Notes under the pieces: generated by a model
What the model saw: only the letters and a program-made list of their open reading frames with translations
Database searches by the model: none
What the model was told of the DNA's origin: nothing
Position numbers and translations under genes: made by a program
In this document: positions 43,100 through 43,379 of the stretch, in pieces
Layout of the letters: each line of letters begins with the position of its first letter
Numbering within the stretch: position 1 is the stretch's first letter
NCBI GenBank assembly: GCA_963818965.1
Contig: CAWFUG010000011.1
Location: forward strand, 96,001-160,000
Direction: 5' to 3'
Origin: an uncultured Verrucomicrobiae bacterium
GTDB taxonomy: Bacteria > Chlamydiota > Chlamydiia > Chlamydiales > Rhabdochlamydiaceae
Length of the DNA: 64,000 nucleotides

Positions 43100-43235
43100 C
43101 TCACGCCTAATTTCTCAAAAATATAAAAATAATTAAAAATAACTAATCGCAAGCAGCAATTAATTGGCGAAACAGCAGAATTCTAATAAAATTTTAGAAT
43201 CCTAAAAAAAAACACGAATGAGTAAAAAAAAGAAT

Positions 43236-43310
43236 TTACCCCAAAAAGGGTGGAGGCGGGGGTGCGTTGATTATTTGACGATCAGATACTGTAAAAAAGA
43301 TCTCTTCCAT
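43236..43310 (-). CDS. Candidate proBAC leader peptide MEEIFFTVSDRQIINAPPPPPFLG
   Basis: GGTGG SD-like site, ATG 43310, CCC CCG CCT CCA CCC, TAA at 43236; 136 nt upstream of proB. Confidence 0.7.
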   Translation of the reverse strand: MEEIFFTVSDRQIINAPPPPPFLG

Positions 43311-43370
43311 ATCTACCACCAACGGCTGATTTAACGAGACTTAGGACATCTATTGTCCGTTACAATTAAC

Positions 43371-43379
43371 ATTCTACCA
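43371..43379 (-). promoter_or_regulatory. Extended -10 element TGgTAGAAT upstream of the Pro leader
   Basis: Minus-strand TGGTAGAAT about 60 nt before the leader ATG. Confidence 0.45.

Follow-up and report, generated by a model that had tools for sequence, protein, structure and literature searches.

A conserved proline-codon leader ORF upstream of proBAC in Chlamydiota, a candidate sensor of prolyl-tRNA

Leader-peptide attenuation is an established principle of gene regulation in which a translating ribosome stalls at hungry cognate codons. To our knowledge, proline synthesis is a textbook amino-acid pathway that is thought to do without leader-peptide control. Its known control consists of feedback inhibition in enterobacteria and of T-boxes in Firmicutes. 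A short ORF with five consecutive Pro codons, located upstream of the genes proB, proA and proC in an uncultured member of the Rhabdochlamydiaceae, raises the question whether chlamydiae control proline synthesis by a leader peptide. The ORF is found in a stretch of 64,000 nucleotides, which we call the window and to which all coordinates refer. The author of a preliminary description of this DNA knew of no leader-peptide attenuator for proBAC. Our literature search is in line with this, as it found no description of a Pro leader for proBA; most subscription journals, including older comparative surveys, lay outside its scope. Such a leader was likewise not found in the accessible portions of three surveys of attenuators and uORFs (PMC2965389, PMC4833913, PMC8632094).

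The features of the region are collected in Table 1. The preliminary description had listed an extended -10 element, a GGTGG Shine-Dalgarno-like site and a 24-codon ORF whose five Pro codons make use of CCC, CCG, CCT and CCA. All of these elements are present on the minus strand, and the extended -10 is also listed by the consensus scan. The spacer between the ORF and the proB start at 43099 had been characterized as U-rich, G-poor and 136 nt long. Length and U-richness are correct (A31, C14, G20 and T71 of 136), but the spacer is not especially poor in G, because C is even scarcer. A pairing of CCACC within the Pro run with the GGTGG of the leader had also been proposed. It is possible in the window, but some relatives, among them L002, have no CCACC in their Pro run. 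A scan of positions 42500-44000 with 4227 Rfam families and E values up to 10 returned five weak matches far below gathering scores, and no covariance-model match to a T-box. The three genes of the operon are well recognized by their protein families. ProB scores 301 bits against TIGR01027 (NCBIfam, cut-off 186), and the family match of ProA begins at residue 67 of its open frame, near 42320. The gene upstream of the leader region encodes a CsaA-like tRNA-binding protein. The source genome has a size of 2.24 Mb and a G+C content of 47.5%.

Table 1. Features of the proBAC leader region and operon (window coordinates)
Feature	Position	Strand	Basis
-35-like hexamer TGGACT	43400-43395	minus	consensus match alone
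Extended -10 TGgTAGAAT	43379-43371	minus	consensus scan: spacer 18 nt, TG present
Small 5'-UTR hairpin GGACA/UGUCC	43344..43358	minus	MFE fold
GGTGG, Shine-Dalgarno-like, for the uORF	43320-43316	minus	sequence
Leader ORF, ATG 43310 to TAA 43236, 24 codons plus stop	43236..43310	minus	sequence
Five-Pro run CCC CCG CCT CCA CCC (codons 17-21)	43262-43248	minus	sequence
Hairpin A, ACCCU-UUUU-GGGGU, last Pro codon(s) with GGG of the Gly codon	43251-43238	minus	-6.5 kcal/mol
U tract 1 (TTCTTTTTTTT), directly 3' of the uORF stop	43224..43234	minus	sequence
Conserved box (ACTCATTCGTG), then U tract 2	43204..43223	minus	sequence and relatives
Hairpin B, core TTCTA...TAGAA	43204-43176	minus	-8.4 kcal/mol; covariation
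Hairpin C, AU-rich, core TTAATT...AATTAA	43165-43141	minus	-8.2 kcal/mol
proB ribosome-binding region: AGG 43108-43106, ATG 43099-43097	43097..43108	minus	sequence
proB, glutamate 5-kinase, 258 aa, without PUA domain	42323..43099	minus	TIGR01027, profile positions 1-256 of 363
Open frame holding proA, glutamate-5-semialdehyde dehydrogenase	41067..42518	minus	NF001221, 566 bits (NCBIfam)
proC, pyrroline-5-carboxylate reductase	40273..41055	minus	TIGR00112, 236 bits (NCBIfam)

The preliminary description had proposed a search of orthologous leaders for a Pro run with synonymous variation, and this search turned out positive. We used 129 genomes of the Rhabdochlamydiaceae (family f1) and 400 genomes sampled from the phylum. 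The distribution of proB is patchy; the gene is present in 24 of the 129 genomes and in 69 of the 400. Up to 500 nt 5' of proB were read in 74 usable loci, and one locus at a contig end that has no upstream DNA (L030) was left out of the counts. A uORF was accepted if it was an ATG-ORF of at most 45 codons that ends 20-330 nt before proB and encodes PP within its last 12 residues. Three candidates were excluded by hand as unlike the family, namely an additional candidate uORF each in L027 and L029 as well as a 37-codon ORF in L072 (f19). In L031 the rule chose an internal ATG, and the likely start is three codons further upstream. After these exclusions a Pro uORF is found in 28 of the 74 loci. 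The window's own family contributes 21 of 23 loci, the two exceptions (G077 and G048) having lost the uORF and kept proB. The other members belong to f5 (2 of 2), f29 (1 of 1), f16 (1 of 2), f22 (2 of 15) and f32 (1 of 2), and ten further families have none in 29 loci. With this outcome, the comparison of sequences gives good support to a leader ORF with Pro codons that is dedicated to proBAC.

Elements around the ORF recur among the relatives as well. A -10-like hexamer is located 41-63 nt 5' of the uORF ATG in 14 of the 28 leaders; in L007, L018 and L029 such a hexamer stands just 6-7 nt 5' of the ATG. A GGAC..GUCC hairpin similar to that in the 5'-UTR of the window is visible by eye in four leaders (L002, L012, L015, L026). 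The sequence GGTGGTAGATATG in the Shine-Dalgarno region of the uORF is found again in several relatives, the conserved box has a counterpart that resembles A-y-TACATTC, and relatives carry an A run 5' of the proB Shine-Dalgarno sequence.

The Pro codons themselves show signs of a translated and selected element. The longest Pro run comprises five codons in 12 leaders, four in 6, three in 3 and two in 7. The ORF ends with TAA in 27 of the 28 leaders, and in 25 of the 28 exactly three codons separate the last Pro from the stop. For a comparison by codon we used 16 unique 25-codon versions, four of which come from metagenomes. At Pro codons 19 and 20 the pairwise differences amount to 0.42 and 0.64 at the third position and to 0 at the first and second positions, while codon 21 is CCC in all 16 versions. 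Since codons 19 and 20 vary at the third position only, the comparison points to selection for Pro codons and not for one fixed sequence.

The ORF is tied exclusively to proB. A degenerate pattern for PPPFxG followed by a stop matched 16 times in the 129 family genomes, and 12 of these matches lie immediately 5' of proB. The remaining four fall inside other ORFs, where they are in a different frame and have no start codon. As a control, the reversed pattern gave four matches in the same genomes. Among the 80 matches of a five-Pro pattern listed for metagenome contigs, six have proB 136-334 nt downstream and all six show a uORF of the family type; the other 74 listed matches have neither proB nor such a uORF. 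When the uORF rule was applied to the 79 non-chlamydial loci among 80 listed proB matches, a PP uORF was found in six and a PPP uORF in two, and none of these resembles the family. Across the genomes and loci searched, including these 79, the element is found in chlamydial genomes only. In the 2.24-Mb genome of the window, no short ATG-ORF other than this leader has at least five successive Pro near its stop, and six have at least four.

How could an ORF of this kind act on proBAC? We consider it probable, on comparative grounds, that the 24-codon ORF encodes a leader peptide which regulates proBAC in cis and senses prolyl-tRNA. A ribosome on the uORF would read three to five successive Pro codons, with three codons left to the stop. 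With charged tRNA-Pro in short supply, it would stall at the Pro run, cover this C-rich stretch and keep a CCC/GGG hairpin at the end of the uORF (hairpin A) open. Transcription or the mRNA would then stay productive and the operon would be on. With plentiful proline the ribosome would finish and depart, and expression from the bare leader would be cut short within the spacer, which measures 100-150 nt. The cut might be premature factor-dependent (Rho) termination, as in tna, mgtA and mgtCBR, and hairpin A together with the U tract may provide a pause during which the ribosome can catch up. We propose stalling as the sensing step because established leader-peptide attenuation works in this way, and we assume the direction of regulation from the function of the operon. 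For the entire reading, a prolyl-tRNA-sensing leader ORF including the relief of termination, our assessment is close to balanced and leans slightly towards doubt.

Some observations speak against the entire reading. A stalled ribosome could also lose its coupling to the polymerase and promote termination, a response of the opposite sign. In seven of the 28 leaders just two Pro codons are adjacent, and most proB loci outside the window's family have no uORF. The N-terminus of the peptide is fairly conserved, which would be superfluous for a pure codon counter.

The termination step deserves a closer look. No conserved canonical terminator was found between the uORF and proB among the 28 leaders. 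A hairpin of -8 kcal/mol or better directly before a U-rich 8-mer occurs in 5 of them, at non-homologous places. Since a conserved strong terminator is missing from these leaders, the cut would most likely be factor-dependent, with Rho as the candidate. The genome encodes Rho (PF07497, 118 bits, in a 449-aa open frame) and has two EF-P genes, so that the proposal of stalling and Rho action is a conceivable one. In 66-nt windows around the uORF stop we counted 14-25 C and 4-11 G with 61-77% pyrimidines, and most of the C belongs to the Pro run. A Rho loading site would be unpaired, rich in C and poor in G over some 60-80 nt. Compared with this, the Pro run of 15-20 nt, the only C-rich stretch in the leader of the window, is short. 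We are doubtful that Rho specifically is the termination factor. One idea is that the same 15 C-rich nucleotides act as the sensor, as the core of an entry site for Rho (or an RNase) and as one arm of the pause hairpin, but we regard it as speculative and on balance rather unlikely.

A second explanation sees an intrinsic attenuator or pause site in the leader. Hairpin A and the U tract would form either a Rho-independent terminator of low strength or a pause site stabilised by the hairpin. The hairpin would be melted by a ribosome that occupies the last Pro codons, and read-through would be set by the position of the ribosome as the polymerase crosses the U tract. No other nucleotide feature of the leader is conserved as widely as hairpin A with its U-rich tail. 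The hairpin is present in 28 of 28 leaders from six families, and in 27 of them 5-9 U are found in the 12 nt 3' of it. A terminator scan flags it as terminator-like. Its G run is maintained across codon boundaries, with NNG-GGT in 7 of 8 cases against G in 1 of 8 for the NNA-GGG arrangement (Fisher p=0.01, the relatives not being independent). In L024 and L047 the stop is shifted and hairpin A is kept; in L047 the hairpin includes the stop and is directly succeeded by the U tract. The fixed distance of three codons between the last Pro and the stop may correspond to the reach of a ribosome with its A site on the last Pro codon, an estimate for which known ribosome footprint sizes are the basis. 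The pairs of hairpin A are invariant, and therefore covariation is silent either way.

Against an intrinsic terminator stands first of all the weakness of the structure. The stem of hairpin A has 3-5 bp with -1.7 to -7.6 kcal/mol, and a gap of 3-6 nt separates it from the U run. In the same genome, 63 of 1586 ends of long ORFs carry a hairpin of -10 kcal/mol or better with a U tract behind it, and values of -20 to -30 kcal/mol are reached by the best of these true terminators. The preliminary description had seen no strong GC-rich terminator, and indeed the sole terminator-like site in the window is the 5-bp hairpin of -6.5 kcal/mol. Moreover, a stall at the first Pro codon would free the hairpin and close coupling would prevent it from forming, so that the operon would be switched off under starvation. 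Because hairpin A as a plain terminator gives the wrong sign by this simple geometry, we rank this explanation second and consider it unlikely.

The leader was also searched for the alternative pairings that a terminator-based switch would use. A classical set of 1:2, 2:3 and 3:4 pairings was not found in the leaders, and no conserved alternative (antiterminator) pairing was seen in the MFE folds of these AU-rich, low-complexity sequences. A stem ending at U tract 2 or conserved partners for the freed GGGG or for the conserved box were not seen by eye. RNAalifold recovered hairpins A and B only, the AU-rich and low-complexity leader sequence limiting its power, and an alignment of the full leaders contained too much noise for an analysis of structure.

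The preliminary description does not mention the CCC/GGG hairpin in which the uORF ends, the U tract behind it or hairpins B and C. Hairpin B begins about 30 nt 3' of the uORF stop in most leaders and covaries among the relatives; of its 6 pairs, 4 have changed in a compensatory manner (RNAalifold and pair counts, 10 sequences). Taken together, hairpins A and B have 97.6% of cells paired, compared with 22-59% in slid controls, and their covariation score of 0.319 exceeds that of shuffled alignments (0.213±0.029; 0 of 500 shuffles as high). Hairpin C is followed by a U-rich tail (43116-43140). By eye only, a homologous hairpin with changed pairs can be seen in L013, L017, L018 and L023; a MAFFT alignment gave no consensus for it, as arms with loops of 4-25 nt were misaligned. 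A pairing of the uORF Shine-Dalgarno region with codons 8-13 (hairpin S) was taken from the fold of the window itself. In 13 sequences 73% of its positions are paired, against 39-52% in slid controls, while its covariation is not above that of shuffles and RNAalifold gives no consensus. We therefore regard this pairing as suggestive.

Regulation might also take place after transcription, in the manner of ermC. The stalled ribosome would free the proB ribosome-binding site, or it would shield the AU-rich leader from RNases and thereby make the mRNA more stable. Many MFE folds pair the U tract behind the uORF stop with the A run or the start region of proB and thereby enclose hairpins B and C. 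By eye, the A run and the U run are swapped in L024, and L027 pairs a CCCUAAUUAAUUC-like sequence with the Shine-Dalgarno region. The AU-rich single strands beside the hairpins resemble sites of the RNase E type. Against this kind of control, the pairing of a U run with an A run involves low-complexity sequence beyond the reach of covariation. As a crude model, we folded the leaders at equilibrium and masked the footprint of a ribosome whose A site is on the second or the last Pro codon or on the stop. In the four states the proB site was unpaired with a mean probability of 0.43, 0.44, 0.43 and 0.44 over the 28 leaders (Wilcoxon p 0.33-0.97), and with this lack of any change in accessibility the release of the proB site by a stalled ribosome was rejected as a candidate. 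In addition, a ribosome at the Pro run falls short of the U tract. Control of the ermC kind thus appears quite improbable to us.

A further possibility is that the peptide arrests the ribosome by itself. Typical versions of the peptide conform to M-[EK]-[EK]-x-[FI]-F-T-x-S-x-R-Q-F-x-N-x-P5-F-x-G, and the nascent chain F-F-T-x-S-x-R-Q...P5-F-x-G would stall at polyproline or at the Gly-stop position. Polyproline stretches are described as intrinsic stalling sites that need EF-P, as far as the accessible text of the sources goes (PMC11611912, PMC5021804). Residues outside the Pro run are conserved at codons 5-7, 9 and 11-13 and at the terminal Gly, which fits an arrest peptide, as do the two EF-P genes of the genome. 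The N-terminal conservation, however, extends to third positions (0.00 at position 3 of codon 6, 0.12 at position 3 of codon 11) and may reflect the suggestive RNA pairing with the uORF Shine-Dalgarno region. The distant members in f16, f22 and f32 retain just PP-x-L-G and the hairpin, and the hairpin of L024 and L047 has outlived a move of the stop. There is also no logic that would connect EF-P status with proline synthesis. We consider an arrest peptide very unlikely, and give as little credit to the corresponding signal, which would be EF-P activity or free proline instead of tRNA charging. That the ORF is not regulatory at all and either codes for a small protein or is open by chance within a conserved RNA or promoter is highly improbable, since the two Rhabdochlamydiaceae genomes with proB and without the ORF are set against Pro codons that vary at third positions only, a conserved ATG and TAA and a fixed distance from Pro to stop, all of which indicate a translated frame, and against an ORF found solely beside proB.

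The prolyl-tRNA-sensing leader ORF can be compared with several known systems. T-box leaders of Firmicute proBA and proI serve the same pathway and respond to the same signal, the charging of tRNA-Pro. In the chlamydial leader, sensing would be carried out by the ribosome and not by a contact between RNA and tRNA. Like trpL, hisL, pheL, thrL and leuL, the leader has a run of cognate codons in a short ORF before the matching biosynthesis operon, and the Shine-Dalgarno sequence of the uORF is possibly shut off by pairing, as in classical attenuators, although this likeness is suggestive only. In contrast to these attenuators, neither a conserved GC-rich terminator nor the 1:2, 2:3 and 3:4 set was found in the proBAC leaders, and the regulatory codons are located at the very end of the ORF, where they form one arm of a small hairpin. 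With no conserved intrinsic terminator found in the 28 leaders, the proBAC leader does not fit the classical terminator/antiterminator type.

In the tnaC-tnaA system, a ribosome that is arrested where the leader ORF ends relieves Rho-dependent attenuation. The signal sensed by the nascent chain of TnaC is free tryptophan, and a catabolic operon is induced. The proBAC leader shares with tnaC a length of about 24 codons, a long untranslated spacer and a ribosome at the 3' end that would mask the RNA adjacent to the stop. The signal here would be uncharged tRNA-Pro, and the spacer is U-rich and not C-rich.

The leaders mgtP and mgtL of Salmonella come close in design and set a direct precedent for the proposed sensing step. 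In the available part of PMC3641672, mgtP is described as a leader of 17 codons with three consecutive Pro codons and with its last codons in a stem-loop. The Pro codons confer the response to low prolyl-tRNA, an intrinsic terminator is absent and Rho is suspected (PMC3641672, same part). For mgtA and mgtCBR it is reported there that low prolyl-tRNA raises downstream transcription, with Rho implicated for mgtA (PMC3641672). As far as this partial account goes, mgtP, mgtL and the proBAC leader have in common a short ORF, consecutive Pro codons, 3' codons in a stem-loop and the lack of an intrinsic terminator. The sequences are unrelated, and the alternative stem-loops defined for mgtP and mgtL in that account were not found in the proBAC leader. 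The genes under control differ as well, being Mg2+ transporters and a virulence protein in enterobacteria and proB, proA and proC here. From these comparisons the proBAC leader would work like a leader-peptide attenuator whose design is closest to mgtP/mgtL and tna.

A conserved Pro-codon leader before proBAC would fill the leader-peptide gap for proline synthesis. The layout may reveal a simpler form of attenuation, in which sensor codons at the end of the ORF sit in a small hairpin, AU-rich hairpins come after it and a canonical terminator is dispensed with. If the C-rich Pro run indeed served both as sensor and as entry site, one stalled ribosome would be enough to settle what becomes of the transcript, and no terminator/antiterminator switch would be needed. 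Proline biosynthesis would then have its first case of control by a leader peptide, and Chlamydiota their first described family of amino-acid attenuators. Should the reading hold, the leader would also be a compact natural proline-responsive element for use in reporters. Finally, it would show ribosome-mediated sensing in environmental chlamydiae, bacteria whose gene regulation is little known.

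Outside f1, the family to which the window belongs, the leader ORF with its run of Pro codons also occurs in a divergent, Phe/Ser-rich version, found at two proB loci of family f22 (L036 and L044) and at one locus each of f16 (L005) and f32 (L047). This version carries just two Pro codons and ends in ...PP-x-L-G-stop, and a CCCC/GGGG hairpin is retained in all four leaders; in L047 a TAG lies within the loop of this hairpin. The leader of a further locus, L037, may be a version that has no ATG. Within f1 the leader ORF has been lost at two loci, L014 (genome G077) and L019 (G048), and proB is kept in each. 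L014 still has the AU-rich spacer hairpin (hairpin C) together with the A-run/SD portion of the spacer, and a divergent gene adjoins.

The spacer between leader ORF and proB, usually about 135 nt long, measures 315 nt in L026 (G096). The additional sequence contains a highly stable nested inverted repeat, with a predicted fold of −35.9 kcal/mol for the core hairpin, and resembles a small repeat element that has been inserted at this place.

The proB gene of the window is a short form of 258 aa; its match covers positions 1-256 of the 363 in the profile, so that the PUA domain is missing. The proB open frames are about 260-290 aa long at most leader-bearing loci and about 370-390 aa at many leader-less chlamydial loci. 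Many relatives have an extra in-frame ATG 9 nt 5' of the aligned proB start (M-K-A/T-M-...), and a small hairpin of the GUUUUC-UUAUG-AAGGC type carries this upstream ATG in its loop.

Directly upstream of the leader lies a gene for a CsaA-like tRNA-binding protein, which is probably unrelated to it, because the upstream neighbour genes vary among the relatives.

Position of proB and of the genes upstream of the leader in the window
Feature	Position	Strand	Match
proB, short form	42323-43099	-	
CsaA-like tRNA-binding protein gene	43468-43803	-	NF007495, 161 bits
VanX-like ORF, D-Ala-D-Ala dipeptidase family	44518-45189	-	Peptidase_M15, E 6e-41

At three loci (L007, L018 and L029) a TATAAT/TAAAAT box is positioned merely 6-7 nt 5' of the ATG of the leader ORF, and the leader ORF may here be translated from a leaderless transcript.
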